Below, in pieces: positions 13,235-64,000 of a DNA stretch of 64,000 nt (position 1 is its first letter; every line of letters starts with the position of its first letter). Below the pieces are notes generated by a model. The model did not search any database. It had not been told where the DNA came from and saw only the letters and a list, made by a program, of their open reading frames with translations. This DNA comes from a candidate division WOR-3 bacterium (GTDB taxonomy: Bacteria > Hydrothermota > UBA3072 > B12-G15). The DNA lies in contig CBFGJG010000004.1 of assembly GCA_965649055.1 (NCBI GenBank), positions 7,654 to 71,653 of the forward strand, written 5' to 3'. The position numbers and the translations under genes are program-made.

Positions 13235-13255
13235 ATAAATAAACAGGAGGTATTT

Positions 13256-13843: not shown

Positions 13844-13845
13844 GG

Positions 13846-39329: not shown

Positions 39330-40797
39330 AAATTTCTCCCGGTATCTTAAAAATAATATGGAATCCTATTTTATCATTTTTAGCCCAGATTTTACCATTA
39401 TGTGCTTCTATAATACTCTTACATATTGAAAGTCCGAGACCCATTCCACCATATTTTCTGCTTGAATCAACATCAATCTGGTAAAATGGTTCAAATATCA
39501 TACTGAGTTTTTTTTCTGGTATTTTTTCGCTATTGTTGTAAAAATCAAATAAAACAAATTCTCTGCCATTCTCATTCAATAATGAGTTATTAATCTTAAT
39601 AAACCCATTTTCAGGTGTGAATTTTGAAGCGTTAAGGAGTATATTTTCGAAGACATTCTTTATTTTTTCTTTATCAACTATACAATCTTTTACTTCAAGA
39701 TTAATCTCTGTTTTTATATTTTTATTTTCAAGATATGGTGAAAAATCCTGCAATGTATCTTTAATTATCTTTTCAATATTTGTTTTTTCAGGTTCTATTT
39801 TTACACCTTCAAGAAGGTATTGGGAGATTTGTAATAAGGAATGTATGTCTTTATTCAGTCTTTCAAGGTTTCTTTTTATAATCTCAAGACTTTTCCTCTG
39901 CTTTTCATTGGGTTCTCCAAGTTTACCCTTCAAAAGGTAATCAACATAACCTAAGGATGCAGTTAAAGGCGTTCTCAATTCGTGGGAAATATTCGCAATC
40001 ATCTGTGTCTTTTGCTTATCCCTTTCTTTCAGCTCGTTTACTAAGTTTTTTAAATCCATAATATTTATTCTTATCCTTTCAGACATAAAATTAAAAGTAT
40101 CGGCTAATTCCTGGAATTCATCATTTGTCTTTATCTTTATAACCCTGGAAAAATCACCTTTTGCTATTTCTTTAGCAGCGTTTTCAAGAATTGAAATATT
40201 AGAGGTTATAAGACCTGAGAGGAATATAGAGATTATTGCGCTTAGTATTAATATAATGAATAGGATTGTGGAAGAAATTTTTATAATGTTACTGATTTCT
40301 TTCTTTAACCTGTCATATGAGAAATAATAAACAATAGAAAATCTATGAACACCAAATCCATCAATATAAGGGTATATTATTCTAATATCTGAACTTTTTA
40401 ATGTTTTAGGTTCAAGCGATTTTAAGTTGTCTAAAACAAACTTATCGTCAGTATATCTTATTTTCTGGTTTGTTGGCATGCTTGACTCGGTAAAATCAGA
40501 ATCAAAGAGTATTTCACCATATAAATCAATAATCTGCAATTTTTTTAAGTCATTTGAAAGGGTAATATGTGTTATTATGAATTCTCTGAATTTGAAATAT
40601 AAACTATGGTAATATCTGATATACATATCGGCAAATTTATCATAAGTTATCCTTGAGAAAGTCTCAGCATTTTTATAAAATTCTTCCTTTAATTGTCTAT
40701 ATGATGAAAGTAAAAAAGATATATAAAGTATAACATATATAATTATCACTCCCAGAGTTATTATTATACTCACTTTGTATCTAAAAGGTATCTTCAT
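39301..40797 (-). CDS. Sensor histidine kinase (2 TM, ~150-aa periplasmic domain, HAMP, HisKA, HATPase_c)
   Basis: H-box 'ISHELRTPLTA', 'FEPFYQ' and G-box 'GGMGLGLSI'. Confidence 0.85.
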   Translation of the reverse strand: MKIPFRYKVSIIITLGVIIIYVILYISFLLSSYRQLKEEFYKNAETFSRITYDKFADMYIRYYHSLYFKFREFIITHITLSNDLKKLQIIDLYGEILFDSDFTESSMPTNQKIRYTDDKFVLDNLKSLEPKTLKSSDIRIIYPYIDGFGVHRFSIVYYFSYDRLKKEISNIIKISSTILFIILILSAIISIFLSGLITSNISILENAAKEIAKGDFSRVIKIKTNDEFQELADTFNFMSERIRINIMDLKNLVNELKERDKQKTQMIANISHELRTPLTASLGYVDYLLKGKLGEPNEKQRKSLEIIKRNLERLNKDIHSLLQISQYLLEGVKIEPEKTNIEKIIKDTLQDFSPYLENKNIKTEINLEVKDCIVDKEKIKNVFENILLNASKFTPENGFIKINNSLLNENGREFVLFDFYNNSEKIPEKKLSMIFEPFYQIDVDSSRKYGGMGLGLSICKSIIEAHNGKIWAKNDKIGFHIIFKIPGEIYEKKKNTNN

Positions 40798-42266
40798 TTT
40801 ATAACCTTTATTTCCTTTAACATTAATGTTTTATCCAGCCTTGGAGTCCATTTTATTCTTTTTGAAAGAACAAAAACATCCTTTTCCCAAACTATTGGTA
40901 TCTTTGGTATATCTTCAAGTATTAATCTCTGAACATATTGTAATCGTTCCAGAATGAGGTTTTCATCTGTTGTTCTTGAAAGTTCTTCCATAATACTATC
41001 AGCATATTTATTCGAATAACCAATATTATTCTGTGTCCCATATCCTTTTTCAGGTTCGTATGTGTGGAAAGAATTTGAAATAATGCTAATACCATCATAT
41101 GAAGTGGGAATCCTTGCAATAATATATAAATATGATTCTCTTTTTTCGACTTTTTCCCAGTACTTATCAGATGGGAGGGGATTCTTTTTTATTTTTAAAC
41201 CTATATTTTCAAGGTCTTCTATTATACCTTCTGCTATTGGTGCCCTTGCATACGAATAGTCAAATGTAAGTTCAGGAATATTGTTAATCTTAGATATAAT
41301 TTTTTTTGCTTCTTCAGGGTCGAATTTAATAGGTTCAATTGAAAAATCAAATCCGAAAACACCAGGAGTGAAAAATTGATTAGCAGGAGTTGCAAAACCA
41401 TTATATACAGTGCTGCATAATCTTTCCCTGTTTATACCTATATTTAATGCGTATCTAAAATCTTTCTTACTGAAAGGGTATTTTTTAAGGTTAAATTCAA
41501 GGAATCTTATTCCTATTCCCGGGGTTGTAACAACCTTTCCGTATTTTGAAAACTCATCAACCTGAGAAAGTGGAACATAAGATACAATATCAGCAATACC
41601 TTCTTTTAATAATCTTAACTTTTCATTGGAATCACGTATATAAAGATATTTTGCCCTTGAAACATCCGGTCTTTTATTCCAGTATTTATTATTCCTTATA
41701 AGTATGAGTTCTTTATCATCCATTTTTTCAAATCTGTAAGGGCCTGTTCCACAAGGGGTATTTTCCATTGGGTCATATCCTTCTGGAATTATAAATACGA
41801 TGGAAATATCAAATAAAAGCGTTGAGTATGGATATTTCGTCTTTATAACAATCTTATTTTCATTTATTTTATAAATTGTATCAACCCTATCTTTGTAAAT
41901 ATTAATCTCCGAGTTTGGAATTTTAAGAGGTCTTTTTAAAGAATAAATTACATCTTCAGGTTTCAATAATTTTCCATTATGAAAATATACGTTTTTTCTC
42001 AATGTGAATACCCAGGTCAAACTATCTTTCTTCTCCCAGTATTCTGCAAGGACACCTGTTATTTTCATATTTGCGTCAAATCCAACAATTGGTTCGTATA
42101 TATTCGAAAGAATTGAAATAACAGGTAGTTCACGGACTGCATGCGGTTCAAGGGTTGATGGCGGTGAATCTATAATGATAGTAATTTCATTTTTTTTATT
42201 GTTACATCCTGAAAAAATAAATATTATTAAAAGGATAAATAGATAATATCTCACAAATTCCTCCAT
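40794..42266 (-). CDS. Solute-binding protein family 5 (peptide/nickel-type) lipoprotein, probably an accessory sensor partner of the kinase
   Basis: The start is reassigned to Met 42266 (signal peptide + 'FSGC' lipobox); the ORF track extends to 42446. It has the SBP_bac_5 architecture and is translationally coupled to the HK, with TGA/ATG overlap at 40794-40797. Confidence 0.65.
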   Translation of the reverse strand: MEEFVRYYLFILLIIFIFSGCNNKKNEITIIIDSPPSTLEPHAVRELPVISILSNIYEPIVGFDANMKITGVLAEYWEKKDSLTWVFTLRKNVYFHNGKLLKPEDVIYSLKRPLKIPNSEINIYKDRVDTIYKINENKIVIKTKYPYSTLLFDISIVFIIPEGYDPMENTPCGTGPYRFEKMDDKELILIRNNKYWNKRPDVSRAKYLYIRDSNEKLRLLKEGIADIVSYVPLSQVDEFSKYGKVVTTPGIGIRFLEFNLKKYPFSKKDFRYALNIGINRERLCSTVYNGFATPANQFFTPGVFGFDFSIEPIKFDPEEAKKIISKINNIPELTFDYSYARAPIAEGIIEDLENIGLKIKKNPLPSDKYWEKVEKRESYLYIIARIPTSYDGISIISNSFHTYEPEKGYGTQNNIGYSNKYADSIMEELSRTTDENLILERLQYVQRLILEDIPKIPIVWEKDVFVLSKRIKWTPRLDKTLMLKEIKVIK

Positions 42267-42354
42267 TAATATTTTAATAATATTTTTTCTTATGTCAATA
42301 ATTTCCTTGAAAAATAAAAAATTTATCATATTATTTATAAAAAACGGAGGTTTT

Positions 42355-42582
42355 ATGAAAATTGCAATAGAGGATATTATAAAAAGAATAAACAGTAAAT
42401 ACAAGGCAACGGTTATTATAGCACTTGATGCAGAAAGATTGAACAAAATCAGGAAAGAAACAAATTTTATGAGCGAGGTTGAAACACCGGAAGAGAAAAC
42501 GATAATTCAGGCTATGAGAAGATTCATAGAAGGTAAGATACAATACAAATTTATTGAAGATGAACAGGATACTAAAAAATAA
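42355..42582 (+). CDS. Small hypothetical protein (75 aa)
   Basis: GGAGG RBS 7 nt upstream of ATG 42355. No recognisable family. Confidence 0.3.
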   Translation: MKIAIEDIIKRINSKYKATVIIALDAERLNKIRKETNFMSEVETPEEKTIIQAMRRFIEGKIQYKFIEDEQDTKK

Positions 42583-48218: not shown

Positions 48219-48685
48219 GGATAGGAATAGGATACGATATTCACAGACTTGTCGAAGGAAGAGAATTTGTTCTTGGTGGAATTATTATACCTTCAAGAAA
48301 AGGTATGCTTGGTCATTCTGATGGTGACCCGTTAATACATTCAATCATTGATGCAATACTTGGTGCAACTTCACTCGGTAATATTGGGATTTATTTCCCT
48401 GATACTGACCCTAAATATAAGAATATTAAAAGCACGGAGTTACTAAAAGAAACTATGAAAATTATAAAAGGATATAAAATTATAAATATTGATTCGGTTG
48501 TGATATGTGAAGAACCCAAACTAACAGATTTTGTGGAGAGGATGAAAGAGAATCTCGGAAAGATAATGGGTATTTCTAAAAATTTAATTTCTGTTAAACC
48601 TAAAAGAAAAGAAGGTCTTGATTCAACCGGAAGGAATGAATCAGTTGAAGTTATTTCTGTATGTCTTTTGGAGGAGGAAAAATGA
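48215..48685 (+). CDS. ispF: 2-C-methyl-D-erythritol 2,4-cyclodiphosphate synthase
   Basis: 'RIGIGYDIHRL', 'HSDGDPLIHS' and 'DSVVICEEPKL'. Confidence 0.92.
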   Translation: MRIGIGYDIHRLVEGREFVLGGIIIPSRKGMLGHSDGDPLIHSIIDAILGATSLGNIGIYFPDTDPKYKNIKSTELLKETMKIIKGYKIINIDSVVICEEPKLTDFVERMKENLGKIMGISKNLISVKPKRKEGLDSTGRNESVEVISVCLLEEEK

Positions 48686-51384
48686 TACTGTTATTTCTTT
48701 TGATGAATCCTTTACAGGATTTTAAAGTTGCTAAGGGATTGTTCGATGATGGGATGTATGAACTTGCAGAAAAGGAATTAAAAAATTTTATCGTTAACTA
48801 TAAAGATAGCGAATATGCAAAAGAAGCAGCATTGCTTTACTTGAAAGCACTTTACGCCCAGGAAAAGTATGAAACTATAATAGGTGAGAGTAAAAAACTA
48901 ATACTTGATTATCCGGAAAATAGGGAAGAAATCCTTATAATAAAGGGAAAAAGTGAGATTAAAATCAATAGATTTAGTGATGCAGAAAGGACATTCAACC
49001 AGTTACAGGACAGAAAGAAAAAATATTCAATGATCGGTGATATGTATTATGGAAAGGGTGATTATAAAAATGCAATCATATATTATCAGAAACTAAATGA
49101 TGATTATGGTAATTTTTCTATCGGGTGGTGCTACTATAAATTAAAAAGATGGGATGATGCAATGAGATATTTCAAAATGGTGAAAGAAAAAAAATATATT
49201 GAAGAGTCCGAATATATGATTTCCAAGATTAATATTATTAAAACAGGAAAGACTGATGAGTTAATAAAATTTTTAAAGAACTATCCAAAAAGTAAATTCA
49301 GAGCTAACGCACTTCTAACACTCGGAGAATATTACGAAGATAAGAACATACAGGAATCACAAAACTATTATATCAAAGTTGTTAATGAAAAACTTGAATA
49401 CTCAGATTATGCACTTTATAGAATAGCACTAAACTATTTTAAGAGTGAAAAATATGACTCTTCACTTTATTATTTTAATCTTGTAGAACCAACATCAAAG
49501 TATTTTGGAGATTGCCTGTATTATATTGCAAGAATAAATTCTTTAAAAGGTGAATATGATATTGCAATAAATTTATTCAAGCAGGTGGCTAATGATTATA
49601 AGGAATTAAGGGAACAGAGTATATTCAGGATTGCTGAAATATATAAAAAGAAAGGAGAAATAGATAAAGCTGTTGAAAATTTCAAGATTGTAACAGGTGA
49701 ATTAAAAACAGGTGCTAATATAGAAATAGGAAACATATTCCTGTCAAAAGGCCAGTTCGACAGTGCTTTATACTATTTTTCGTTAAGTGATGATGATAAG
49801 ATGGTTTTTTTAAAGAGTATAACATATTTTAAAATGGGAAATTACGATGAGGCTATTTCAAACTGCCAAAAAATAATAAAGAGATCAAAAGACACAGAAT
49901 TAGTTTTAAAGTCAAAACTCCTTCTTGGAGATACCTATCTTGAAAAGAAAAGTTATGATGAGGCAATCAATTTTTATACAGAGGTTTTAAATAATAATAT
50001 GAGAATCCTTTATCCTTCAGCACTTGAAGGATTGGGATGGGCTTATTACGGGAAGAAAGATTACAATGCTGCATTCAATTACCTTGACAGGTTATCAAAA
50101 GAATTCCCGGATTATCAGGGAAAAGGTAAAATATTTCTCACTATGGGCGATATTGCGTATTCAATGAAAGATTATGAAAGGGCTATTGAATATTACAGCA
50201 AAGTTAAAGGAGAGGAAGAACCTGAATCTTTTTATAAAAAAGGGCTTGTTCTCTTTGATAAAGGTGATTACACAGGTTCAATAAAAATATTGAATGAACT
50301 TAGGAAGAAGTTCCCATTATATGAAAAATCAGATGATGCATTATATCTTATTGCACTTGCTTCAAGGAAGGCAAACGATATTTACGCATCTATAAACAAT
50401 ATACGTGAATTATTAAAGATGTCTGTATCTAAAGAATTAAAGGCTAAAGCAACCCTACTTCTGGCAGACAACTTTTTTGACCAGGGAAGATTTGATTCTT
50501 CTCTATACTATTATGAAAGATATACTTATATTTTCACACAACCACAAAAAGAGATGGTTCCCGGAATAAGAGGTATAGTTTATTCTGTTTATAAATTGAG
50601 GGGAGAGAAAGAGTTTGAAAATATAATTAATGATTACATGAGAAGATATAAGGAAACAATAATATATCAGGATATCGCAGTTATGTTTGCAAGGCTCTAT
50701 CAAAATATTGGTAATTCAAAGAAGGCAATTGAGTTACTTGAAGGCATAAATACAATAGATTCGAAAATAGCACTTTTAGATGTATACAAGAAAACAGGAA
50801 ATCAAGAGAACCTGATAAAATTATTGAATGAACTTTTGACAGATGAAAGGACTAAGGAAAAGGCATCTTTTGAACTGGCAAGTTATTATTTTAAAAGAAA
50901 AGAATTTTCAAAAGCAATTGAATATTCAAAAAATATAAATAAACCTGATATTAACTATATCTATATTATGTCACTTATTGAGAATAAAAAGATAGAAGAA
51001 GCACTTGATGAACTTGAAAAAAGAAATACAGAGGATTATAAAGAACTCCTGAAAGGTATTATATTAATCAGAAAGGGGGACGAAACCGGTGTTCAATACC
51101 TTGATAATGCTATGAAGAATGAAAATACAGCACCAATTTCCATTTATGAAAAAGCAGTATATCTTATTGGTAAAAATAAAGACAACGATGCAAAAGAGAT
51201 ACTTTTGAAAATGAGATATCTATATCCTGAAAGTGAGTATTATTCACCATCTATGATTATACTGTCAAAGATATTGATAAAGGAAGGAAAAAAATCAGAA
51301 GCAAGGAAAATTCTTGAAGAAATTATAGCAAGAAAGGATGGATATGAAAAAGATGCAAAAGCTATTCTTGATAGTATTCGTTAG
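48661..51384 (+). CDS. Large tetratricopeptide-repeat protein (secreted/periplasmic?)
   Basis: Many W/Y-x-x-A-x-x-Y TPR-like repeats along its length. N-terminal hydrophobic segment. Confidence 0.7.
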   Translation: MSFGGGKMILLFLLMNPLQDFKVAKGLFDDGMYELAEKELKNFIVNYKDSEYAKEAALLYLKALYAQEKYETIIGESKKLILDYPENREEILIIKGKSEIKINRFSDAERTFNQLQDRKKKYSMIGDMYYGKGDYKNAIIYYQKLNDDYGNFSIGWCYYKLKRWDDAMRYFKMVKEKKYIEESEYMISKINIIKTGKTDELIKFLKNYPKSKFRANALLTLGEYYEDKNIQESQNYYIKVVNEKLEYSDYALYRIALNYFKSEKYDSSLYYFNLVEPTSKYFGDCLYYIARINSLKGEYDIAINLFKQVANDYKELREQSIFRIAEIYKKKGEIDKAVENFKIVTGELKTGANIEIGNIFLSKGQFDSALYYFSLSDDDKMVFLKSITYFKMGNYDEAISNCQKIIKRSKDTELVLKSKLLLGDTYLEKKSYDEAINFYTEVLNNNMRILYPSALEGLGWAYYGKKDYNAAFNYLDRLSKEFPDYQGKGKIFLTMGDIAYSMKDYERAIEYYSKVKGEEEPESFYKKGLVLFDKGDYTGSIKILNELRKKFPLYEKSDDALYLIALASRKANDIYASINNIRELLKMSVSKELKAKATLLLADNFFDQGRFDSSLYYYERYTYIFTQPQKEMVPGIRGIVYSVYKLRGEKEFENIINDYMRRYKETIIYQDIAVMFARLYQNIGNSKKAIELLEGINTIDSKIALLDVYKKTGNQENLIKLLNELLTDERTKEKASFELASYYFKRKEFSKAIEYSKNINKPDINYIYIMSLIENKKIEEALDELEKRNTEDYKELLKGIILIRKGDETGVQYLDNAMKNENTAPISIYEKAVYLIGKNKDNDAKEILLKMRYLYPESEYYSPSMIILSKILIKEGKKSEARKILEEIIARKDGYEKDAKAILDSIR

Positions 51385-52517: not shown

Positions 52518-53243
52518 ATGGAAAGAAGGATACTTTTATCAATTGCTGGTTTTGACCCGACAGGGCTTGCAGGTATATTAAGGGATATTCAGGTTTTTAA
52601 TTCTCTTGGTTTTCATGGTTGCGGTATGGTAACATCTTTAACCATTCAAAGTTCAAAAAAAGTATTCAAAAAAAAGGATATTCCACAAAAATATATATTT
52701 GAATCACTTTCAAAAATAAACCTTGATATATCCGGGATAAAAATAGGTATGTTAAATAATGAGAAGAGTGCTATGGAGGTCTTAAAATACATTGAACATT
52801 CAAGGATTAAAAATATAGTATTAGACCCTGTCCTTTTTTCAACTTCAGGTTACAGGCTGATAAACGAAAAGGGTATTAAATTTATGAAAGAAAGAATTTT
52901 TCCTTTTGTTTTATCTATTACCCCCAACCTTTTTGAGGCAAAAGCCCTTACCGGTGAGAAAAAAATAGAGAAGATTTTAGAAAAACTTAAAAGATTAATC
53001 AGTGGTTTTGTGATACTTAAAAATATCGATGGGGTCGATATATTTTTTGATGGTTCAAATCTTGTAGAGATAGAACCCTATCATAGGTTGAAAGATGCAA
53101 AGATGCATGGTTCTGGATGTGTTTTTTCTTCTGCATTGCTATCGTATCTTTCAAAAAATATGAATCATTTACAGGCTGCAAAAATGGCAAAGAAATATAC
53201 TGAAGAAGAAATAATTAGTTTTTTAAAGAAACCTGTTGACTAA
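52518..53243 (+). CDS. thiD: Hydroxymethylpyrimidine/phosphomethylpyrimidine kinase-family (ThiD/PdxK-like) protein
   Basis: 'SIAGFDPTGLAGILRDIQVFNSLG', 'ITPNLFEAKAL' and 'HGSGCVFSSAL'. Confidence 0.75.
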   Translation: MERRILLSIAGFDPTGLAGILRDIQVFNSLGFHGCGMVTSLTIQSSKKVFKKKDIPQKYIFESLSKINLDISGIKIGMLNNEKSAMEVLKYIEHSRIKNIVLDPVLFSTSGYRLINEKGIKFMKERIFPFVLSITPNLFEAKALTGEKKIEKILEKLKRLISGFVILKNIDGVDIFFDGSNLVEIEPYHRLKDAKMHGSGCVFSSALLSYLSKNMNHLQAAKMAKKYTEEEIISFLKKPVD

Positions 53244-53282: not shown

Positions 53283-53753
53283 ATGAAAATAGAGTTTATA
53301 AAAAAGCTTATTGAATTACTTGAAAATAGTAATATTAATGAGATAGAGATAAAGAGGTTCGGGACATCTCTAAGAATAGTAAAATTAAAAAATCAGATTA
53401 TCACAAATTTTCAGGAAACACCAAATCCGGTGAAGGTTCAGACACATCAGGTGAAAGAAAAGGAAGAAAAGGTAGAAACGAAGAAAGAAGAAGTAAAAGA
53501 GAAGAAAGATTATCTTATGATTAAATCTCCGATGGTTGGAACATTTTACAGGGCACCGGCACCAGATGCCCCACCTTTTGTTGAACTCGGTGATATTGTA
53601 AAACCAGGCCAGACTGTTTGTATTATTGAAGCTATGAAGATAATGAATGAGATAAAATCAGAATTTAGCGGTAAAATTGTTGAAATACCTGTTAAAAATG
53701 AACAACCGGTTGAATTTGGGCAGGTTTTATTCCTTCTTGAACCATTAAAATAG
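53283..53753 (+). CDS. accB: Acetyl-CoA carboxylase biotin carboxyl carrier protein
   Basis: Biotinyl-lysine motif '[10 protein letters not shown]' in the C-terminal lipoyl-like domain. Confidence 0.9.
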
Positions 53754-53761: not shown

Positions 53762-54856
53762 TTGGAGCTTAGACCCATTCTTGAAAAGATGGTAAAGATG
53801 GATGCTTCAGACCTGCATTTAAAAGTAGGTCTTCCACCTATTTTAAGGGTGCATGGAAGACTTACCCCTTTAAATATGCAGCCGCTTACCAATGATGACC
53901 TGAAGGAAGCTGCTGCTTCACTTATGACAAAACAACAACAGGAAGAATTTGTAAAGAGGAAGGAAGCTGATTTTGCTGTAGGATTGAAAGGTCTTGCAAG
54001 ATTCCGTGTGAACTGTTATGTCCAGAGGGGAAGTATTGCAATCGCGATGAGGACAATACCACACGTGATAAGGTCAATTGATGAGTTAAACCTTCCTCAA
54101 ATCCTGAAAGATATTTCCCTTTATCCAAGAGGGCTTATACTCGCAACGGGAACAACCGGTTCAGGTAAGTCAACAACACTTGCTGCAATGATTGAATACA
54201 TAAATCAGAATGTCTCGAAACATATCATAACAGTTGAGGACCCTATAGAGTATCTTTTCAGGGATAAAAAATCAGTGATTTCTCAAAGAGAGGTAGGAAC
54301 AGATACATATTCTTTTGCAGATTCACTGAGGTATATTTTAAGGCAGGACCCTGATGTTATAATGATAGGTGAGATAAGGGACGTTGATACAATGGATACT
54401 GCTCTAAAAGCAGCTGATACAGGCCATCTTGTTCTTTCAACATTACACACCTTAAATGCTGCTGAAACAATAAACAGGATTATAAGTTTTTATCCACCAC
54501 ACCAGCAACAACACATAAGGGTTTTACTTTCTGCAACACTTGTAGCTGTTGTATCATTGAGACTGCTCCCGCTTAAAGATAAAACTGGAATGATACCTGC
54601 AACAGAGATTCTTATCTCAACACCTACAATAAGGGAATATCTACTTGACCCTGTTAAAACATTGAAGATTCCACAGGCAATTACGGAAGGCAGTCAGTAT
54701 GGAATGCATTCATTTGACCAGTGTATAATGGATTATTATAAAAGGGATTTGATTGATTATGAAACAGCTATAAACAATTCGACTAATCCTGATGAATTCA
54801 AGATGAAGTTGAAAGGAATAGAAACATCCACTGAAGCAGGTTGGGGCGGGGCTTGA
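53762..54856 (+). CDS. pilT: Type IV pilus retraction ATPase PilT (TTG start with GGAGGG RBS)
   Basis: '[10 protein letters not shown]', 'ITVEDPIEY', '[16 protein letters not shown]' and '[10 protein letters not shown]'. Confidence 0.9.
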
Positions 54857-56196
54857 GTATAAAAAAATTACTTGTTGCAAACAGAGGTGAAATAGCGGTA
54901 AGAATTATAAGGGCTGCAAAAGAACTCGGAATAAAGACTGTTGCAGTATTTTCTGAAGGTGATGAGAATTCCCTCCATATATTCCTTGCAGATGAGTCCG
55001 TAAGAATAGGTCCAGCAAACCCAAAGAAAAGCTATCTTAATATACCAATGATAATAAGTGCAGCTGAGGTTTCAGGAGCTGATGCAATCCACCCGGGATA
55101 TGGTTTTCTTGCTGAAAATCCCGTTTTTGCAGATACATGCATTGATAGTGGTTTTATATTCGTTGGTCCTTCCCCTGATGCAATAAGAAAAATGGGTGAT
55201 AAATCAGAGGCAAAGAAGACAATGAAGCAAGCTGGTGTTCCTGTTGTCCCGGGGAGTGAAGAACCTTTAAAAAATGTTGAGGAGGCAATAGAGATTTCAA
55301 AAGAGATTGGTTTCCCTGTAATTCTAAAGGCAGTGAGCGGTGGTGGCGGAAAGGGTATGAGGGTTGCTTACAATGAAAAAGAACTTTATGCTAATTTTAG
55401 AATGGCTTCTTCAGAGGCAGAAGCAGCATTCGGTGACGGAAGAATATATATAGAGAAGTATATTGAGAACCCAAGACATATTGAGATTCAGGTCATGGGT
55501 GATATGATGGGTAATGTTGTTCATCTTGGAGAAAGAGAATGTTCAATCCAGAGAAAGCATCAAAAATTACTCGAAGAGGCACCTTCCACCATTGTGGATG
55601 AGAAAATGAGGGAAGAAATGGGAAGGATAGCTGTGAAAGGTGCAAAGAAAATAGGATATTATTCAGCAGGAACAATGGAATTTATTGTGGATAAGAATAA
55701 AAATTTCTATTTTATGGAAATGAACACAAGAATACAGGTTGAACATCCTGTTACTGAAATGGTGACAGGTTTTGATCTTGTAAAAGAGCAGATACTGGTT
55801 GCAATGGGAGAGAAACTGAGTTTTACTCAGAAGGATATAAGATTTAAAGGACATGCTATTGAGGCAAGGATAAATTCTGAAAGTCCCGAGAATGGTTTCA
55901 TACCCAGTGTCGGAAAGATAAATTCAATTCATATACCGGGTGGTAATGGTGTAAGGATTGACACACATCTTTATCATGGATACAATATTCCACCATATTA
56001 CGATTCCCTTATAATGAAGATAATTACACACGGAAGGGATAGGAATGAGGCGATTCTGAGGATGAAAAGGGTTCTTGATGAAATAATTATAGATGGTGTC
56101 CAGACAACGATAGGACTTCATAAAAAAATTCTTGAAAACGAAAACTTTCTAAAAGGTGAAATAAATACAAATTTTCTACAAACTATGGGTATATAA
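54841..56196 (+). CDS. accC: Acetyl-CoA carboxylase biotin carboxylase subunit
   Basis: '[17 protein letters not shown]', ATP-grasp 'GGGGKGMR' and '[14 protein letters not shown]'. Confidence 0.95.
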
Positions 56197-56792
56197 TGTC
56201 TATAATAAGATTTGGTTCAAGGGAAATAACCTGTAAGATAGTTTACTATGGACCCGGAAGGGCAGGAAAGACCACCAATCTCCAGTATCTTTATTCGAGG
56301 ATTCCAGCAACAAGAAGGAGCGAACTTGTATCCCTTGCAACGGAAACAGATAAAACGCTTTTTTTCGATTATATGCCAATAGATGTAGGCAATTACAGGG
56401 GTTTTACAACAAAATTTCAGCTTTATACAGTTCCGGGACAGGTTTTTTATGAGGATACGCGAAAACTTGTTCTAAAAGGAGCTGATGGTATCGTTTTTGT
56501 AGCAGATTCTCAAAGAGAAAGATTAGAAGATAATATTTTCAGTCTTGAGAACATGTTTCAAAATATGGAAGAAAATGGAATAGATATAAACGATACCCCT
56601 ATCGTTCTACAATATAACAAGAGGGACATGAACGATATTTGCACTATAGATGAGTTACAGGAAATATTAAATAAGAATTTCCTGTATGAATACTATGAGG
56701 CAATAGCAATAAAGGGAGTGGGTGTTCCTGAAACTTTTAAGGCAATAGGAACACTTGTTCTTAAAAATTTAAGGGAGAAATTAGGTCTATGA
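56196..56792 (+). CDS. mglA: Ras-like small GTPase MglA (mutual gliding-motility protein A family)
   Basis: 'CKIVYYGPGRAGKTTNLQYLY', 'LYTVPGQVFYEDTRKL' and 'GIVFVADSQRERL'. Almost co-linear with Myxococcus MglA hallmarks. Confidence 0.9.
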   Translation: MSIIRFGSREITCKIVYYGPGRAGKTTNLQYLYSRIPATRRSELVSLATETDKTLFFDYMPIDVGNYRGFTTKFQLYTVPGQVFYEDTRKLVLKGADGIVFVADSQRERLEDNIFSLENMFQNMEENGIDINDTPIVLQYNKRDMNDICTIDELQEILNKNFLYEYYEAIAIKGVGVPETFKAIGTLVLKNLREKLGL

Positions 56793-58519
56793 TTGAGGAT
56801 ACAGGACAATTTGATGATTTAAGGGTAGTTTTATCAAAACCCGAAAATTATGGTGTTGTTTATATTTACGGGGTAAACCAGGAAATTCTTTCGAATATAG
56901 AATATTTTATAAATTCTTCAAAGATAGTATTTTTAAAAATAAATGCAGAAAAATTAAAAGAAATTGACTTTTCGGGTATTGAATTACCAAAAGTTGTTCT
57001 GCTCCAGGATATTGAATATTTTGTAAGGAATCCTGAGGAGGAAAAATATTTTATCACATTAATTGAGAAATGCCTCAGGGAGAAAAAACAACTATTGATA
57101 ACAGGTATGTTTTCACTATCGGAGATAAAATTATCTGATAACGCAATGTTATATCTAAAACATATCTTCACGATTAAATTTGAACATAAAGACAAAAAAG
57201 GTGATCAGTTCACTGAAATTATAAAGACAATAGAACCTGATATACCTGAAATAAAACCCGAAAACAATATTGTTGAGGAATTGAGAGAAGAATATAAGGC
57301 AAAAATGTATATTTGGAAGATGAAGGGGTTTAACACATCAAGGATTGAAAGTGTTATTGATGGTAATATAGAGGCGATAACGAGTGAATTCATTTCTTTC
57401 ACAGCAGATATACAGAGGCTTATTGAACTGCAGAAAAGGTATGGAATATTGGAACTTCACATGATACCCGAGAAGGAAAAAATAGATATAGAGAAAAAAT
57501 TGTTTGACCCTGATAGCATATCAGAATTAGAGTACAAGATTTCTTTCTATGAGAAGAGGGCAACATTAAGAAACCAATTTAAATTAATGCTCTCCTGGGA
57601 TGAAAGAATGAATAGTGTTGAAGTTGATGAGAGCAATTCACAAATAGTTAGATTTATAACAAGCTTCTCACTTGAACCATATAAATATAAAGGTTTGAAC
57701 CTTATAAGGGGCGATAGAGGATTTGGTAAATCCACATACCTTAATATTACAGGAATACAATTATTTGAAAATTTTAGAAATCTTGTTATAGCATTTATAA
57801 CACCACATTCAATATTAAATATTGATGATTTTCTAAATGACCTTTCATATTTTGATATCGCACTTTTCGATGATATTGATAAGGTAATTTTTAGATATCA
57901 AAAGATTTTTTCAGATGATATACTCAGAATAATTTTTGACATGCCTGTCCTTGCTACTTTTACAAGCAAAGGATTTATCGATACTGTAAAACATTTTGAA
58001 ATAAAGAATAATTTTGAAATTAAAGAACCCGGGATTAAAATAAAAAGAAAGATGATAGAAAAAATAACAAACGATAGCAAGATTATTGAAATGGCAAACG
58101 AAGAAGTCCAGAAGATAAAAGGCGGTTTTTATGAAATAGAAAACCTGATATCAAATTTATATTACGAAAAGAAAGAAGAATTACCCTCAAAGGAAATAAT
58201 TGAAGAAAAAAAGGAAGTCGTTGAGATTAAGACAGAAGGTGAAGAAACGATAACAGAAATTCCAGAAAAAATAGATTTTAAAGAAGAAATCAAAGAAGAG
58301 ATAAAAGAAGAAATAGAAGAAAAATCGGAAGTTTCTGAAAAAATTATTGAAGAGAAGAAAGAAATTCAGGTTCCAAAGATCGAAAAGATAGAAGAAGAAT
58401 TACTCGAAGAAAAAGTAGCACCTGAAGAAACTAAAGAAGTTAAGAAAATAGAGTTTGTTAGCGAAGGTATAGTAATGGATATAGAAAATTATAGTTTAAG
58501 GATACAGAAGGAGCTGTAA
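56789..58519 (+). CDS. Protein with two tandem DnaA/Hda-like AAA+ modules (the first with a degenerate P-loop, the second with Walker A 'GDRGFGKST') and an E/K-rich repetitive C-terminus. Start overlaps the mglA stop (ATGA).
   Basis: The second module reads 'GDRGFGKSTYL…VIAFITPHS…DIALFDDIDKVIFRYQKIFSDDILRIIFDMPVLATFTS…NNFEIKEPGIKIKRKMIEKI'. It parallels DnaA domain III 'GGTGLGKTHLL…VVYMHSERF…[40 protein letters not shown]…GLTVAIEPPELETRVAIL'. The first module repeats the D-I-x-F…F…L…Q-L-L-I-T pattern without a Walker lysine. Confidence 0.5.
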   Translation: MIEDTGQFDDLRVVLSKPENYGVVYIYGVNQEILSNIEYFINSSKIVFLKINAEKLKEIDFSGIELPKVVLLQDIEYFVRNPEEEKYFITLIEKCLREKKQLLITGMFSLSEIKLSDNAMLYLKHIFTIKFEHKDKKGDQFTEIIKTIEPDIPEIKPENNIVEELREEYKAKMYIWKMKGFNTSRIESVIDGNIEAITSEFISFTADIQRLIELQKRYGILELHMIPEKEKIDIEKKLFDPDSISELEYKISFYEKRATLRNQFKLMLSWDERMNSVEVDESNSQIVRFITSFSLEPYKYKGLNLIRGDRGFGKSTYLNITGIQLFENFRNLVIAFITPHSILNIDDFLNDLSYFDIALFDDIDKVIFRYQKIFSDDILRIIFDMPVLATFTSKGFIDTVKHFEIKNNFEIKEPGIKIKRKMIEKITNDSKIIEMANEEVQKIKGGFYEIENLISNLYYEKKEELPSKEIIEEKKEVVEIKTEGEETITEIPEKIDFKEEIKEEIKEEIEEKSEVSEKIIEEKKEIQVPKIEKIEEELLEEKVAPEETKEVKKIEFVSEGIVMDIENYSLRIQKEL

Positions 58520-60117
58520 TGGCTATAAAGGGTTCATTAAAGGCAGCTTCTCTACCAGATGTGATACAGATGCTTTCTGTTGGAAGAAAATCAGGTGTTC
58601 TTAGTGTAACAAATGGAGAAATATTCATATTCATATATTTTGAAAAAGGTAAAATTACAGGTCTCGATTCAGTTAACAGACAATACAGGATAGGGGAATT
58701 GCTCATAAAGAATGGTAAGATAACAGAGGAACAGCTTGAAAGTGCACTATTAGTTCAGAAAGAAAACAAAGATAAATTACTTGGCGAGATATTACTTGAG
58801 ATGAAATTTATCGATGAGGATATATTAAAAAATGCAATAACAGAACAGGTTAAAGAAGGGCTTTACAGTGCATTTTCATGGGAAGATGGATATTTCAGCT
58901 TTGAACCAGGGGAAAGCAAGGTAAAAAAAGTAGGTAAAATCTCAATTGATGCACAGGACCTTTTACTTGAAGCAGCAAGGATAGTTGACGAGTTAAGTAT
59001 AATAGAATTACCTGGATATTCTGATATCCTTTTAAAGACAAAAACAGATACTGATGGTCTTAACGAAAAAGAGAAAGAGATTATAAATCTTATAGATGGG
59101 AAAAAGACTATGGAAAATATCCTTGATGAGACAAGAATTGATGAATTTGAAGCGATGAAGATTATTGGCAAATTATTACAAAAGGGATATATAAAAGGCT
59201 TGAAACAAACTTCTATACCGATAGAAAAGGCAATGGCGAAGATATCAGAGCATGAAAACCTTGGTATAGCATTTTTATATATGGAGATGTTCACCGAGGC
59301 GGAAAGAGAGTTTAGAAGAATACTTGAGATTGATCCTTTAAATGTTAAGGCAAAATTCTTCATAAGTATAATAAAATTTTTCAAAAATGATATTGATTCT
59401 GCTATTAGTCTTACTAAAGAGATAATAAATATGAACAATTTTTATCCATCTGTTTATGCAAATCTTTCTGTTTTTTATGAAAAGAAAGGCGAACTTGATG
59501 AAGCATTAAATATTATTGATGAAGGGCTTAAAAATTGGCCAGAAAATTCTAAGTTATTATTAAATAAGTTAATTATAAAAATAAAGAAAAACGAGATTGA
59601 GAATTTAAAAGAGATATTTGAGAAAATAAAAGAAACGGAGATAAACAATCCTGTTTTCTATTTTTATTACGGAATATATGAATGGAAGAATAAAAATTTG
59701 AATAATGCAATAAATATAATGCTTGAAGGTCTCAAGATTAATCCACAATTTCCCGAATATTACAATAATCTCGGCAGGTTCTACGAAGAAAGTGAAGAAT
59801 ACGAAAAGGCTGAAGCAATGTTTAAAAAGGCAATAGAAATAAAAAGTGATTACATCCCCGCAATTAAGAATATAGGTGATTTTTACTATAAAAATGGATA
59901 CTATTCACTTGCAAATGAGCAGTATGAGAAATTGACCAGTCTAAACTACAGTGATGCAGAGGTTTACTTTAAGATGGGAAACATTGCTCTTAAGAAGGGC
60001 GATTTCCACGATGCATATAAATTATGGAGTGAAGGATTAAATGTTGAACCTGATAATGAACTTTTGAAAAGGAATATAGAAATTCTTAAGAAAGATTATG
60101 GATTTGGAACTATATAG
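58519..60117 (+). CDS. DUF4388-like N-terminal domain + TPR-repeat protein
   Basis: 'SLPDVIQMLSVGRKSGVLSV…IYFEKGKI' fits the DUF4388 pattern. The C-terminal two-thirds consists of TPR-like repeats. Confidence 0.5.
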   Translation: MAIKGSLKAASLPDVIQMLSVGRKSGVLSVTNGEIFIFIYFEKGKITGLDSVNRQYRIGELLIKNGKITEEQLESALLVQKENKDKLLGEILLEMKFIDEDILKNAITEQVKEGLYSAFSWEDGYFSFEPGESKVKKVGKISIDAQDLLLEAARIVDELSIIELPGYSDILLKTKTDTDGLNEKEKEIINLIDGKKTMENILDETRIDEFEAMKIIGKLLQKGYIKGLKQTSIPIEKAMAKISEHENLGIAFLYMEMFTEAEREFRRILEIDPLNVKAKFFISIIKFFKNDIDSAISLTKEIINMNNFYPSVYANLSVFYEKKGELDEALNIIDEGLKNWPENSKLLLNKLIIKIKKNEIENLKEIFEKIKETEINNPVFYFYYGIYEWKNKNLNNAINIMLEGLKINPQFPEYYNNLGRFYEESEEYEKAEAMFKKAIEIKSDYIPAIKNIGDFYYKNGYYSLANEQYEKLTSLNYSDAEVYFKMGNIALKKGDFHDAYKLWSEGLNVEPDNELLKRNIEILKKDYGFGTI

Positions 60118-60868
60118 TCTTATGAAAACTATAAAAAATTTACTGGATTTCGATCCTATGAATTATAAGGAAAAACCTTTTAAAAGAAGAATAAGGGTAA
60201 GAATGAGGGCACTTGGGTTTGAAACATACAAAGAGTACGAGGAATATCTTAAAAATAATATAGAAGAACAGATTAAACTTAAAGATACCCTTACCATTAA
60301 TGTTAGTAAATTTTTCAGAAACTTAGAGGTATTTGAGATTATAAAAGATGAAATTATACCTAAGATTAAAGAACCTGTAAGATGCTGGAGTGCTGGATGT
60401 TCTACAGGTGAAGAACCTTATACAATTGCTATAATACTTAAAGAACTTGGTAAAGAGGGAAGAATAATAGGAACAGATATAGATACAGACGCACTTAAAA
60501 AAGCGAGGGAAGGCGTATACACTATTTTTTCTATGGACGAGATACCATACCAGTATATTAAAAAATACTTCGATGAGAAAGATGGAAAATATATAATAAA
60601 AGATTTTATAAAAAATTATGTTACATTCCTTGAACTCGATTTTAAAGATATTGAAAAATTTACAATGAAATTTGATATTATTCTTTGCAGAAATGTTCTT
60701 ATATATCTTACAAAAGAATTTCAGGAAAAATTAATAACAAGATTCTATGAATTGCTTGATGAAGGTGGTTTTTTAATACTTGGTATGGCTGAGACACTTG
60801 GTATTGGTAAATATGAATATTTTTTACCTTATAAATTAAAAGAAAGGATTTACAGAAAAAATGGATAA
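60098..60868 (+). CDS. cheR: Chemotaxis protein methyltransferase CheR (start possibly at Met 60122)
   Basis: 'RIRVRMRALGFETYKEY', SAM-binding 'RCWSAGCSTGEEPYTIAI', and 'ILCRNVLIYL'. Confidence 0.85.
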   Translation: MDLELYSLMKTIKNLLDFDPMNYKEKPFKRRIRVRMRALGFETYKEYEEYLKNNIEEQIKLKDTLTINVSKFFRNLEVFEIIKDEIIPKIKEPVRCWSAGCSTGEEPYTIAIILKELGKEGRIIGTDIDTDALKKAREGVYTIFSMDEIPYQYIKKYFDEKDGKYIIKDFIKNYVTFLELDFKDIEKFTMKFDIILCRNVLIYLTKEFQEKLITRFYELLDEGGFLILGMAETLGIGKYEYFLPYKLKERIYRKNG

Positions 60869-61337
60869 GATATTTGTCAAGATAGCAGAGATGAAAGCAG
60901 GTAAAGCCCCGAGTGTAATTATAACAATGGGGCTTGGTTCATGTGTAGCAGTTTCTTTATATGACAGAGCAAATAAATTTGGAGGGTTGCTTCACTTTTT
61001 ACTACCGGAAAATCCTTCTAATGATTCAAATTATTTTAAATACGGGGATAGTGGCATAAAAGAGATGATAAAATATTTTAGAAATAATGGCTCAAAATTA
61101 GAAAATATAGAGGCAAAAATAGTGGGTGGTTCAATTATGTTCACTCAACTTCTAAAAAGCACAGAGAATGCAGTTGGACCAAGAAATGTTAAGATAGCAA
61201 AAGAAATTCTTGAAAAACATAATATAAGGATTGTGAGTGAAGATACTGGCGGTGATTACGGTAGAAGTGTGGAATTTTATCTTGAAACAGGAGAATTAAA
61301 AGTTAGCTCTTATAAAACAGGTATAAAGATTATATGA
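60861..61337 (+). CDS. cheD: Chemoreceptor glutamine deamidase CheD
   Basis: 'GLGSCVAVSLYD' catalytic Cys motif. Size 158 aa. Confidence 0.85.
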   Translation: MDKIFVKIAEMKAGKAPSVIITMGLGSCVAVSLYDRANKFGGLLHFLLPENPSNDSNYFKYGDSGIKEMIKYFRNNGSKLENIEAKIVGGSIMFTQLLKSTENAVGPRNVKIAKEILEKHNIRIVSEDTGGDYGRSVEFYLETGELKVSSYKTGIKII

Positions 61338-62362
61338 AAACAATAAAGGTCCTTATCGTTGACGATTCTTCTTTTATGAGAAAACTTTTAAGAGATATAC
61401 TTGAGGCACATCCTGAAATAAAGGTTGTAGGGATGGCTAAGAATGGGGAAGAGGCAATACAGTTAAACGAAACACTCGAACCCGATGTTATTACAATGGA
61501 TGTAGAAATGCCTGTTATGAACGGAATAGAGGCAGTCCAGAAGATTATGGAATCAAATCCAAAACCAATAATAATGTTAAGTGCACATACAAGAGAAAAT
61601 GCAAAGATAACAATTGAGGCACTTGAGAAAGGTGCGTTTGATTTTGTCCCCAAGCCTGGAGGTGAGGTTTCTACAAACCTTATAAACATAAGTGAAGAGA
61701 TTACCGAAAAGATAAAGGCAGCATACTATGCTAATCTTCCAGCTTTGAGGGAGTCAGTATATTTGTCAAAGATTGAAAAACCAAGGGTATCTTCATCCCA
61801 AAAAGTTGTTGTTATTGCAAGTTCAACAGGAGGACCAAAAGCTTTATCATACATAATACCTAAAATACCAAAGGATTTTAATTCACCTATTATAGTTGTT
61901 CAGCATATGCCAGAAGGATTCACATCTGCATTTGCAGAAAGGCTTAAAAGTATAAGTAAATTGAATGTGAAAGAAGCAGAAGATGGTGATACAATAAAAA
62001 GAGGGAACATATACATTGCACCTTCCGGTTTCCATACAATAATAAACGAAGAAGAAAAGATAGTTCTTACGAGGGATAAACCTATACATGGTGTGAGACC
62101 TGCAGCTGATAAAACCATGGTATCCGCTGCTAATGTTTTCTTAAATAATACAATCGGAGTTGTTCTCACCGGAATGGGTAAAGATGGCGCTGTTGGTGTA
62201 AAAAGGATTAAAGCAGTAGGTGGTAAAAATATAGCACAGGATGAAAAAACATCAATAATATATGGTATGCCAAAAGCAGCATATGAAACAGGATGCGTTG
62301 ATGAAGTGCTACCACTTGAGAAGATACCGGAGGGCTTGCTCAGGATGGTTTCAGATGATTAA
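61334..62362 (+). CDS. cheB: Protein-glutamate methylesterase CheB (receiver + methylesterase)
   Basis: Receiver 'KVLIVDDSSFMR…DVITMDVEMPVMNG'. Esterase 'IASSTGGP', 'VVQHMPEGFT' and 'GMGKDGA'. Confidence 0.9.
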   Translation: MKTIKVLIVDDSSFMRKLLRDILEAHPEIKVVGMAKNGEEAIQLNETLEPDVITMDVEMPVMNGIEAVQKIMESNPKPIIMLSAHTRENAKITIEALEKGAFDFVPKPGGEVSTNLINISEEITEKIKAAYYANLPALRESVYLSKIEKPRVSSSQKVVVIASSTGGPKALSYIIPKIPKDFNSPIIVVQHMPEGFTSAFAERLKSISKLNVKEAEDGDTIKRGNIYIAPSGFHTIINEEEKIVLTRDKPIHGVRPAADKTMVSAANVFLNNTIGVVLTGMGKDGAVGVKRIKAVGGKNIAQDEKTSIIYGMPKAAYETGCVDEVLPLEKIPEGLLRMVSDD

Positions 62363-63116
62363 AGAGATAGAAGATATTGTAAGGAAAATAAAGAATTCAA
62401 AGGATAAAATGGAAATATCAGAAAATATAAAAAGATTTAAAAATCTTTATAACAAATATTTACAGTATCTTGAAGATATGAAAAAAGATGTAAACAAGAT
62501 AGAAGCAACTTTGTCAAGTTCAACTTTCGCTGAAAAACTTGTATTCTCACCTGTTGACGTTCAGACATTGATAGAAAAGGCAAAGAACGATATTGTGAAG
62601 GGAAATTACAACGATGCAATGAAGAATCTCCATCTCGCTAAAAAAATAGAACCGGAAAATATAAAAGTCTACTCATTACTCGGATGGGTTCTTCTTGAAC
62701 TTGAAAAATACGATGAAGCACTTGCAGTATACCAGAAGGTTTTGAAGTTAGATCCATCAAACGAAATAGCAATGGTTCATATTGGTTTTGTTAATTATAA
62801 ACTTGGAATTTTTGGTGAAGCAATTGAGAAACTCTCAAGGATAAATAAAGAGGGAAGAAATAAGGAAGCAGTCCTTTATTCCCTACTTTATCTTGGCAGG
62901 ATCTATTTTGAAAGGGAGATGTTCAACGATGCAATAGAGATACTTGAGGAGGCAATATCTTTAGGGCCAAATCTTTTTGAGGCTTACTATCTCTTGGGAA
63001 AGGCATACCTGGAAAAGGGGGATAGGAAAAAATGTGATGAGATTTGGGAGAAAGCCATTAGTAAAGGTATACAAGATAAATGGGTGGATAAGATAAAGGA
63101 GGAAAAAAATGGTTGA
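62355..63116 (+). CDS. TPR-repeat protein (start at ATG 62355 overlapping cheB stop; ORF-track N-terminal extension rejected)
   Basis: Several 34-aa TPR units ('YNDAMKNLHLAKKIEP', 'YDEALAVYQKVLKLDP'). Confidence 0.65.
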   Translation: MIKEIEDIVRKIKNSKDKMEISENIKRFKNLYNKYLQYLEDMKKDVNKIEATLSSSTFAEKLVFSPVDVQTLIEKAKNDIVKGNYNDAMKNLHLAKKIEPENIKVYSLLGWVLLELEKYDEALAVYQKVLKLDPSNEIAMVHIGFVNYKLGIFGEAIEKLSRINKEGRNKEAVLYSLLYLGRIYFEREMFNDAIEILEEAISLGPNLFEAYYLLGKAYLEKGDRKKCDEIWEKAISKGIQDKWVDKIKEEKNG

Positions 63117-63915
63117 AGAATACTGGGGTTTAAGGAGCAAACCATTTTTAAATACGCCTGATTTAAAATTCCTTTTTAGAAGTGAAGATTTTAAAGAGGG
63201 ATATGCAAGGATTATTTATAACATAAACGAGATTAGTGGTGGACTCACCCTTATTACAGGTGAAATTGGTTGCGGGAAAACATATCTTGCAAATGCGTTG
63301 AAAAAAGACCTTACTGAATTCGGTCATAAGGTGATATTTGTAACTAATCCTATATTTACACAGACTGGTTTTGTGAGATGGATTGCTGAAAATTTTCTCG
63401 AACAGGAAAAAGTTCCTTATCAGAAAGTTAAAATTTTTACAGCACTTGAGAATATGCTTAAAGAAAATGCAAATAAGGATAAAAAATATATAGCGATAAT
63501 AGACGAGGCTCAGATATTAAAGGCTAAGGTCCTTGAAGAAATAAGATTACTGTTGAATATTGAATCAGATGAAAAGAAATTAATTCAGATAATATTGCTC
63601 GGTCAACCTGAAATAGAAAAAAAGATTGAGAAGATGCCACAGATAAGACAGAGGATTAATATAAGATACCATATAGAACCAATGGATGAAGAAGAGGCTA
63701 TATTGTATATTGAACACAGATTAAAGGTTGCAGGTGCAAAAAAGGAAATATTCAATGATGAGGCTAAAAAAACATTGTATAAATTAAGTGGTGGTATACC
63801 CAGGAATATAAATACTCTTGCGCAAAACTCTTTATTTGTAGGCTATAGCCTGAAAAAAGATGTTATAGACAAAGAAATAATAGAAGCAGTTGCTGAAGAT
63901 TTAAGGATGGTGTGA
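63109..63915 (+). CDS. ExeA/GspA-like AAA ATPase (AAA_16 family)
   Basis: 'LITGEIGCGKTYL', 'IIDEAQ' and 'LLGQPEI…L…RI' are typical of ExeA/MshM-type ATPases. Confidence 0.7.
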   Translation: MVEEYWGLRSKPFLNTPDLKFLFRSEDFKEGYARIIYNINEISGGLTLITGEIGCGKTYLANALKKDLTEFGHKVIFVTNPIFTQTGFVRWIAENFLEQEKVPYQKVKIFTALENMLKENANKDKKYIAIIDEAQILKAKVLEEIRLLLNIESDEKKLIQIILLGQPEIEKKIEKMPQIRQRINIRYHIEPMDEEEAILYIEHRLKVAGAKKEIFNDEAKKTLYKLSGGIPRNINTLAQNSLFVGYSLKKDVIDKEIIEAVAEDLRMV

Positions 63916-63916: not shown

Positions 63917-64000
63917 ATGAAAAAGAAAAAAATAAGTTTCCAGAAAGCAGTTGAAGAAACAAAAAAGGAAGAAGTAGTAGAAAAAGAAGAGTTAAAAGTT
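63917..64000 (+). CDS. Partial ORF (5' end only), Lys/Glu-rich; unknown
   Basis: ATG right after the previous stop. Runs off the window. Confidence 0.25.
   Translation, partial: MKKKKISFQKAVEETKKEEVVEKEELKV

Follow-up and report, generated by a model that had tools for sequence, protein, structure and literature searches.

Chemosensory adaptation genes joined to mglA in a candidate division WOR-3 bacterium form part of a gene cluster conserved across candidate lineages

A stretch of 64,000 nucleotides from a candidate division WOR-3 bacterium (contig CBFGJG010000004.1 of assembly GCA_965649055.1, positions 7,654 to 71,653; hereafter the window) carries a module of chemosensory adaptation genes at its end, downstream of mglA, the gene for a Ras-like polarity GTPase. 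The G+C content of the window is approximately 30%, and from 52.5 kb to the window end there is a single uninterrupted run of genes on the + strand, to which all genes of the module belong. The mglA gene (56196-56792) is followed by a gene for a 576 aa tandem AAA+ protein (56789-58519), and then by the six genes with which the original prediction was concerned. These encode a PATAN (DUF4388) protein with a C-terminal TPR array (58519-60117; PF14332, 1e-32, and TPR hits), the receptor glutamate methyltransferase CheR (60098-60868, 256 aa; PF01739, 2e-52, and PF03705, 3e-8), the receptor glutamine deamidase CheD (60861-61337; PF03975, 5e-29), CheB with a receiver domain (2e-25) and a methylesterase domain (2e-65) (61334-62362; NF001965, 422 bits against a cutoff of 293), a soluble TPR protein of 253 aa, here termed TPR2 (62355-63116; TPR Pfam hits), and an ExeA/MshM-like AAA_22 ATPase of 268 aa that consists of the cytoplasmic domain only (63109-63915; PF13401, 8e-23). 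With domain support of this strength, the presence of all six genes at these positions on the + strand was confirmed.

The junctions between the genes from mglA to the gene following AAA_22 measure, in order, -4, -1, -20, -8, -4, -8, -8 and +1 nt, and all open reading frames (ORFs) of the module are intact. The true start of TPR2 is probably at 62355 and not at 62262, as judged from the gene calls in related genomes. The last gene is cut by the window end; its 84 nt (63917-64000, MKKKKISFQKAVEE...) match the N-termini of CheW proteins of 208-221 aa in two related loci, L001 and L004 (related loci are cited by number), and are therefore the 5' end of a long cheW, here cheW1. A scan of the region for promoters and terminators gave site counts equal to those of shuffled sequence, and so says nothing on operon boundaries. 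One sigma-70-like near-consensus site (TTGACA, 17 nt spacer, TACAAT; 11 of 12 positions) lies at 55958-55986, approximately 210 nt upstream of mglA and inside the 3' end of accC, and given these counts it is a mere lead. Rfam and tRNA scans of the whole window were empty, and exact-protein look-ups with the AAA_22 and CheB proteins of the window returned no matching record.

The GTPase matches Myxococcus xanthus MglA structures at E=2e-71 over residues 1-194 and that of Thermus thermophilus at 3e-64, and on these matches it is a genuine MglA. The P-loop and the G3 motif, in which Thr replaces Asp (TVPGQ), are conserved in 35 sequences. At residue 53, the position of the intrinsic Arg finger (M. 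xanthus R53), the window and its two nearest relatives have Lys (TETDKTLFFD), four loci have Gln, and the remaining orthologues have Arg. Pfam scans and phmmer searches with Roadblock queries detected no Roadblock/MglB gene in the window or in the related loci of the WOR-3 type (Type W, described below); a Roadblock gene is present in loci of the Stahlbacteria and Edwardsbacteria types.

The 576 aa AAA+ protein itself has no sequence match in Pfam, NCBIfam or the PDB. Its orthologues match PF00308 (Bac_DnaA), and its AlphaFold model, in which pLDDT is approximately 90 over residues 160-460, retrieved tandem AAA+ ATPases in Foldseek, so the label 'DnaA-like' that this gene had been given holds. 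In the alignment the N-terminal Walker A motif is degenerate in the window (IYGVN--QEIL versus IYGxxGSGKT), and the second P-loop is intact. Between them lies a helical middle domain of approximately 95 aa (57251-57598), which in two alignments shows the invariant motif EY..K..WKMKGF ... LI.LQ...G and for which there is no Pfam model. Of 1.84 billion cluster representatives, only 133 contain this domain at E<=1e-3. They include large proteins with 5-11 tandem copies, and among those scanned with Pfam some have Bac_DnaA and/or zinc-ribbon domains.

In the PATAN/TPR protein the PF14332 match covers residues 4-159 against a profile of 122 positions, which indicates an insertion in the PATAN domain. 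This insertion is helical and contains an MshEN-type cyclic di-GMP (c-di-GMP) motif (NF053729, 54.5 bits against a cutoff of 38, aa 57-110), and residues 55-112 match T. thermophilus PilF (6f8l) at 8.5e-8. The strict 24 aa form of the motif was found in 20 of the 37 PATAN/TPR sequences aligned; the window motif is one residue off this form, and in three loci of the Edwardsbacteria/UBP2 type (Type E, below) the motif is tandem and fully canonical. The C-terminal part of the protein is a TPR array, and no Response_reg match was found in it with Pfam. In cyanobacteria, pilus-directed chemosensory systems use the PATAN domain of regulators as their output, and this domain binds PilB1/PilC (bioRxiv 10.1101/2021.06.11.447907); MglA/MglB genes were seen to neighbour PATAN genes occasionally in a 2014 survey of prokaryotic small GTPases (PMC4316618). 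On the - strand of the window, at 37676-40797, one operon encodes a HAMP histidine kinase, a receiver protein that stands alone and a protein with an EAL domain, and it may supply the c-di-GMP signal to which the PATAN/TPR protein would respond.

The three adaptation enzymes look like active enzymes from their conserved residues. The 33 aligned CheB sequences agree without exception in the DD/D/S/KP pocket of the receiver and in the Ser-His-Asp triad, the SAM-binding motifs of CheR are conserved in 38 sequences and the Cys/His of CheD in 36, with GLGSCVAV kept. CheD matches that of Thermotoga maritima (2F9Z) at 6e-30 and NF041119 at 6e-43. The ratio of non-synonymous to synonymous substitution (dN/dS) was calculated against L004, and is 0.03 for mglA, 0.06 for cheR, 0.04 for cheD, 0.05 for cheB and 0.03-0.13 across all genes, values that are approximate because dS is saturated (1.2-1.8). 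These ratios point to strong purifying selection and, together with the conserved catalytic residues, indicate that the module is in use, and the intact receiver pocket of CheB implies a kinase. It was also considered whether core proteins other than methyl-accepting chemotaxis proteins (MCPs) could be substrates of CheR and CheB, and this was dropped as the methylation consensus is present in none.

The AAA_22 protein has its closest homologues (84-91% identity) on candidate division WOR-3 metagenome contigs. Four of these contigs run colinear with the window, with a nucleotide identity of 78-82%, and reveal what follows its end. In these closest relatives the order is CheW (208-221 aa), CheW (135 aa), cinA, ligT, an unknown gene, recA and recX. 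CheW1 is canonical in these relatives, as it scores 79 bits in Pfam and matches CheW structures, and CheW2 is divergent, with 33 bits and no PDB match. More distant WOR-3 contigs (51-59% AAA_22 identity) have the same order with an MCP of approximately 560 aa between the two cheW genes. On this comparison the sub-lineage of the window has lost the MCP, as has one TA06 genome. The MCPs of the relatives have approximately six hydrophobic segments and a canonical hairpin tip, and their C-terminal arm aligns without gaps to Tm1143. Most of the WOR-3 MCPs encoded in cis have few or no strict methylation motifs, and the two MCPs downstream in Type E have several heptad-spaced EE/QE motifs. The continuation with CheW-CheW-cinA-ligT-recA shows that a flagellar chemotaxis operon, which would have offered the Che enzymes another home, does not follow, and no flagellar gene was found in the window or among the annotated flanking genes of related loci.

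No transmembrane (TM) segment was found in TPR2 and no hydrophobic segment in the AAA_22 protein. The latter scores 213 bits against TIGR03015, under the cutoff of 324, and it was rejected as a PEP-CTERM ATPase on this score and because its neighbours are TPR and CheW genes and not gsp or xrt genes. In most contexts examined AAA_22 is directly followed by a long CheW, also outside the MglA cluster; one Hydrothermales locus has the TPR-AAA_22 pair only. Examples of the AAA_22 and long CheW pair outside the MglA cluster are at 8001-9602 of L048 and 10001-13733 of L049. The pair is solitary in a Gemmatimonadetes metagenome-assembled genome, and in another such genome the order is AAA_22-CheW-MCP-CheW-pgpA-cinA.

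The wider distribution of the module was determined with a genome scan based on the AAA+ alignment, which retrieved 38 species-level GTDB loci; a query with the single AAA+ protein had found nothing. The loci, labelled WOR-3, TA06, Cloacimonadota, Stahlbacteria, Edwardsbacteria and UBP2, were mapped by blastp and unlabelled ORFs were checked with Pfam. They share the core MglA - AAA+ - PATAN/TPR - CheR - CheD - CheB - TPR, with the AAA+ gene present in all 38, PATAN/TPR in 37, CheR in 34, MglA and CheD in 33 each, CheB in 31 and TPR2 in 27. Most of the absent genes fall at contig ends, and for TPR2 many of the loci are truncated. MglA is adjacent in 33 of the 38 loci and nearly all others are cut by contig ends. 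A lack of conserved linkage to mglA in relatives, which would have refuted the original prediction, is thus clearly contradicted, and the physical joining of receptor-modification genes to mglA that had been noticed in the window is the most conserved feature of the locus. The proposal that the island is lineage-specific does not stand, as the cluster spans at least six candidate lineages.

Three architectures were distinguished. Type W, to which the window belongs, is found in WOR-3, TA06 and Cloacimonadota and has the order accB-pilT-accC-(thiE)-MglA-AAA+-PATAN/TPR-CheR-CheD-CheB-TPR-(AAA_22)-CheW-(MCP)-CheW-cinA. Type S, of Stahlbacteria, is MglA-Roadblock-AAA+-PATAN/TPR-CheR-CheD-CheB-TPR. 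Type E, which is Edwardsbacteria/UBP2-like, is the fullest version and begins with CheW-CheY-CheA-CheC-large TPR-second PATAN/TPR-TPR/Roadblock-Roadblock-Roadblock-MglA, so that Roadblock/MglB-like genes adjoin MglA, and continues from there as MglA-AAA+-PATAN/TPR-CheR-CheD-CheB-TPR-CheW-MCP-MCP, a small unknown gene and a Ser/Thr kinase. CheA, with P2, dimerisation, HATPase and P5 domains, and CheC were identified upstream of MglA in L035, L039 and L040, and L051 has CheW-CheY-CheA(Hpt-P2-dim-HATPase-P5)-CheC; the CheA of Type E is without a receiver domain and is adjoined by a single-domain CheY. As Type E carries CheA, CheY and CheC in the same cluster, the system descends from a kinase-dependent pathway.

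Several further features of these loci were recorded. Foreign genes are inserted in some Type E clusters with the gene order unbroken (L035 13884-15924, L046 1-5457 and L043 2370-5275). The inserts comprise LVIVD/FlgD_ig or FG-GAP/Por_Secre_tail proteins just upstream of cheB (in L035 between cheD and cheB), and, upstream of the second PATAN gene, a NotI-type restriction-modification set accompanied by Mrr and TIR genes. In Edwardsbacteria-type clusters (L046/L047 11752-13849) the genes after the two MCPs encode an unknown protein of 124-126 aa and a Ser/Thr protein kinase that carries a PEGA domain, and their starts overlap the preceding stops. In Cloacimonadota loci (L017 2094-5453 on the - strand, and also L028, L031 and L034) a protein of approximately 1,110 aa with an MCP signalling domain and SBP_bac_5 is encoded divergently upstream of accB; in the window SBP_bac_5 is encoded as a protein of its own (40794-42446). 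A 907 aa TPR protein of the window (48661-51384) was considered as an orthologue of the 895 aa TPR protein of the Edwardsbacteria type, and was rejected because the similarity is of the generic TPR kind only.

Upstream of mglA in the window lie thiD (52518-53243), accB for the biotin carboxyl carrier (53283-53753), pilT (53762-54856) and accC for biotin carboxylase (54841-56196; Pfam), all on the + strand. PilT is a type IVa pilus retraction ATPase and matches TIGR01420 (pilT_fam) at 4e-137, above the cutoff. The order accB-pilT-accC-mglA is kept in 23-24 of the 38 related loci, from WOR-3, TA06 and Cloacimonadota (L005-L034). The position of pilT between accB and accC is an odd yet stable mix of pilus and fatty-acid synthesis genes.

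The interpretation that we favour, and hold to be probable, is that the region is the middle of an operon that runs at least from mglA to the second cheW past the window end, and a reduced form of a conserved Che-MglA supercluster which controls type IV pilus motility. In the proposed circuit, membrane receptors, which in this lineage would be encoded elsewhere, form arrays with the two CheW proteins, and adaptation would be provided by CheR, which methylates the receptors, CheD, which deamidates them, and phospho-CheB, which demethylates them. A CheA/CheY pair, which would also be encoded elsewhere in the genome, would pass the signal to the MglA switch; we infer the presence of this CheA from the intact CheB receiver domain and from the sister lineages. 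MglA-GTP, possibly aided by the AAA+ protein, would then recruit the PATAN/TPR adaptor by a proposed contact with its TPR array, and the PATAN domain would engage the type IV pilus motor (PilB/PilC), again as a proposed contact, with c-di-GMP as a second input. The outcome would be to set the pole at which pili extend and retract, with pilT in the same gene string, and the AAA_22 ATPase and the long CheW would probably position or scaffold the array, a further contact that is proposed. MglA is known to direct pilus motors to the cell poles, and among its effectors are TPR proteins, for example SgmX (PMC11580455, and general background). The role in pilus motility or polarity that was originally suggested thus fits the parts that are present, namely pilT, MglA and PATAN.

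Several observations weigh against this interpretation. CheA, CheY, CheC, MCP and MglB are encoded neither in the 64 kb window nor in the 10 kb downstream of it in the closest relatives; for the window this is the outcome of Pfam searches of every ORF of at least 120 aa, a CheA N-box regular expression and phmmer runs in which CheA, CheC and Roadblock proteins served as queries. For CheA the region covered without a match runs from -56 kb to +10 kb. With the core genes absent from window and flank, the signalling core of the organism is not seen at the locus. The only pilus gene nearby is pilT, with no pilB, pilC or pilM-Q in the vicinity, and the Lys at the Arg-finger position of the window MglA and the lost first P-loop of its AAA+ protein may both alter how the switch works. 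The saturation of dS also counts here, as it limits the precision of the dN/dS values. The original prediction that the window is without CheA, CheW and MCP is correct for complete genes over all 64 kb, except that the long cheW begins in the last 84 nt (63917-64000). Of the kinase, coupling protein and receptor that it expected beyond the window end or elsewhere, only the two cheW genes lie just past the end, as the MCP has been lost in this sub-lineage and there is no CheA in approximately 56 kb upstream or 10 kb downstream.

A rival reading is a chemosensory module that works without a kinase. Type W would in that case have lost CheA, CheY and CheC, and partners bound to CheW (AAA_22, PATAN/TPR and the tandem AAA+ protein) would read the state of the receptors and act on MglA without a phosphorelay. 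CheA and CheY are indeed absent from approximately 30 Type W loci within ±10 kb as well as from the window, the AAA_22-long CheW pair is found in several lineages even without other che genes, and both the divergence of CheW2 and the scarcity of strict methylation motifs in most WOR-3 cis MCPs agree with such a module. It is nevertheless unlikely, as the phospho-acceptor pocket of CheB is invariant in 33 of 33 aligned sequences, the homologous cluster of the sister lineages holds CheW-CheY-CheA-CheC, and absence within 10 kb is uninformative on the rest of the genome. We know of no role for CheW without CheA. We would give similarly little weight to a bolder form of the idea, that the cluster is a hard-wired chemosensory-to-polarity circuit with unrecognised connectors (the tandem AAA+ protein with its 95 aa domain, the c-di-GMP-binding PATAN/TPR protein and the AAA_22/long-CheW pair), in the Type W form of which, without CheA and CheY, receptor methylation would control MglA and pilus polarity without a phosphorelay.

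The adjacency of che genes and mglA could also be due to chance or neutral processes, with the che genes serving an ordinary pathway, flagellar or other, and without functional coupling to mglA. The che genes are commonly split over several loci, and the string includes housekeeping genes on both sides (upstream accB, accC and thiE, downstream cinA, ligT and recA), so genes of one operon in this lineage need not share a function. Yet at least six candidate lineages keep the core order between flanks that are completely different, in the fullest version MglA, MglB and PATAN are inside the che cluster, between CheA-CheC and CheR, and flagellar genes are absent from the window and from the annotated flanks of related loci, which makes mere adjacency very unlikely. 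That the module is a non-functional remnant, eroding after loss of its receptor gene, would accord with the lost MCP, the lost AAA+ N-terminal Walker A motif and the Lys at the MglA Arg-finger position. Decay of this kind is nonetheless extremely improbable and is largely refuted by the dN/dS values, which are low for every gene, with dS saturating, in the comparison with L004, a relative likewise without a cis MCP; the ORFs are moreover all intact and the catalytic residues kept.

Among known systems, the Frz pathway of M. xanthus, with which the module had been compared, is an ACF-class and not an F-class system. It has a CheA (FrzE type) fused to a receiver, the dual receiver FrzZ, FrzCD without TM segments and FrzF, a CheR-TPR fusion, and is not known to contain CheD or CheC. 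The cluster described here shares with Frz and MglA/MglB the tie of CheR- and CheB-type enzymes to MglA-controlled motility polarity, with TPR proteins alongside, the two CheW proteins, one canonical and one divergent (compare FrzA and FrzB), and pilus polarity as its likely output. It differs in that the window cluster has CheD and a CheR without TPR fusion, related loci add CheC, MCPs with approximately six TM segments and a CheA without fused receiver, a FrzZ-like dual receiver is absent from the window and ±10 kb, and the tandem AAA+, PATAN/TPR and AAA_22 ATPase are extra conserved parts. These differences in gene content mean that the cluster is not a member of the Frz group, and the label 'Frz-like' is not supported, but by analogy it probably works as Frz plus MglAB does. 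Furthermore, frz and mglBA are separate loci in Myxococcus, and the 2014 survey states that neither there nor in Bdellovibrio does mglA lie close to the genes of its chemosensory partners (PMC4316618); the corresponding genes form one operon or supercluster here. In sum, the linkage of mglA and che genes that was first observed is secure, and the reading placed upon it is upheld in part, without lineage specificity, the Frz label or a full signalling set beyond the window.

The co-encoding of a PATAN protein with che genes is shared with the cyanobacterial Tax/Pix systems, whose PATAN output (PatA-type PATAN-REC) binds PilB1/PilC (10.1101/2021.06.11.447907); in contrast to the PatA type, PATAN here is fused to TPR and not to a receiver, has an MshEN-type c-di-GMP motif and adjoins MglA. 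There is also a likeness to the F1-like systems of Thermotoga and Bacillus, seen in CheD, which most resembles the T. maritima type, in the joint occurrence of CheC and CheD in the full version and in the MCP arm of the relatives, which aligns to Tm1143, although those systems control flagella and are not known to contain MglA, PATAN or AAA+ genes. An F1-like origin is hinted at by CheC and CheD as such and by the resemblance of CheD and MCP to those of Thermotoga. An ATPase gene directly followed by a gene for a CheW-domain protein with a long N-terminal extension, as a recurring pair, resembles ParC/ParP of Vibrio; this likeness is in architecture only, as the ATPase here is AAA_22/ExeA-like and not ParA-like, with no sequence relationship. 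With ExeA/GspA the AAA_22 domain is held in common, and the TM segment and periplasmic peptidoglycan-binding domain of ExeA, and a secretion or exosortase gene context, are absent here.

The Che-MglA supercluster is apparently undescribed, as no description of it was found in the literature on MglA and che linkage or on chemotaxis in WOR-3 and Cloacimonadota. The literature searched also holds no description of motility in WOR-3, TA06, Cloacimonadota, Stahlbacteria or Edwardsbacteria, for which the cluster could serve as a genomic marker of pilus-based taxis. How an array signals to MglA/MglB is still being worked out in Myxococcus, and here a single conserved gene cluster holds both. The tandem AAA+ protein, the PATAN/TPR protein with its c-di-GMP motif and the TPR protein offer concrete candidates for what connects the array to the GTPase and to the pilus motor. 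Interest is limited by the lack of cultured hosts and by CheA not being seen in this lineage.

Two other regions of the window, away from the module, were recorded. A C25 (gingipain-type) peptidase with a CARDB domain is encoded at 13175-16719, with a propeptide-like ORF before it, and a PIF1-type helicase fused to a WYL domain is encoded at 2156-3709.

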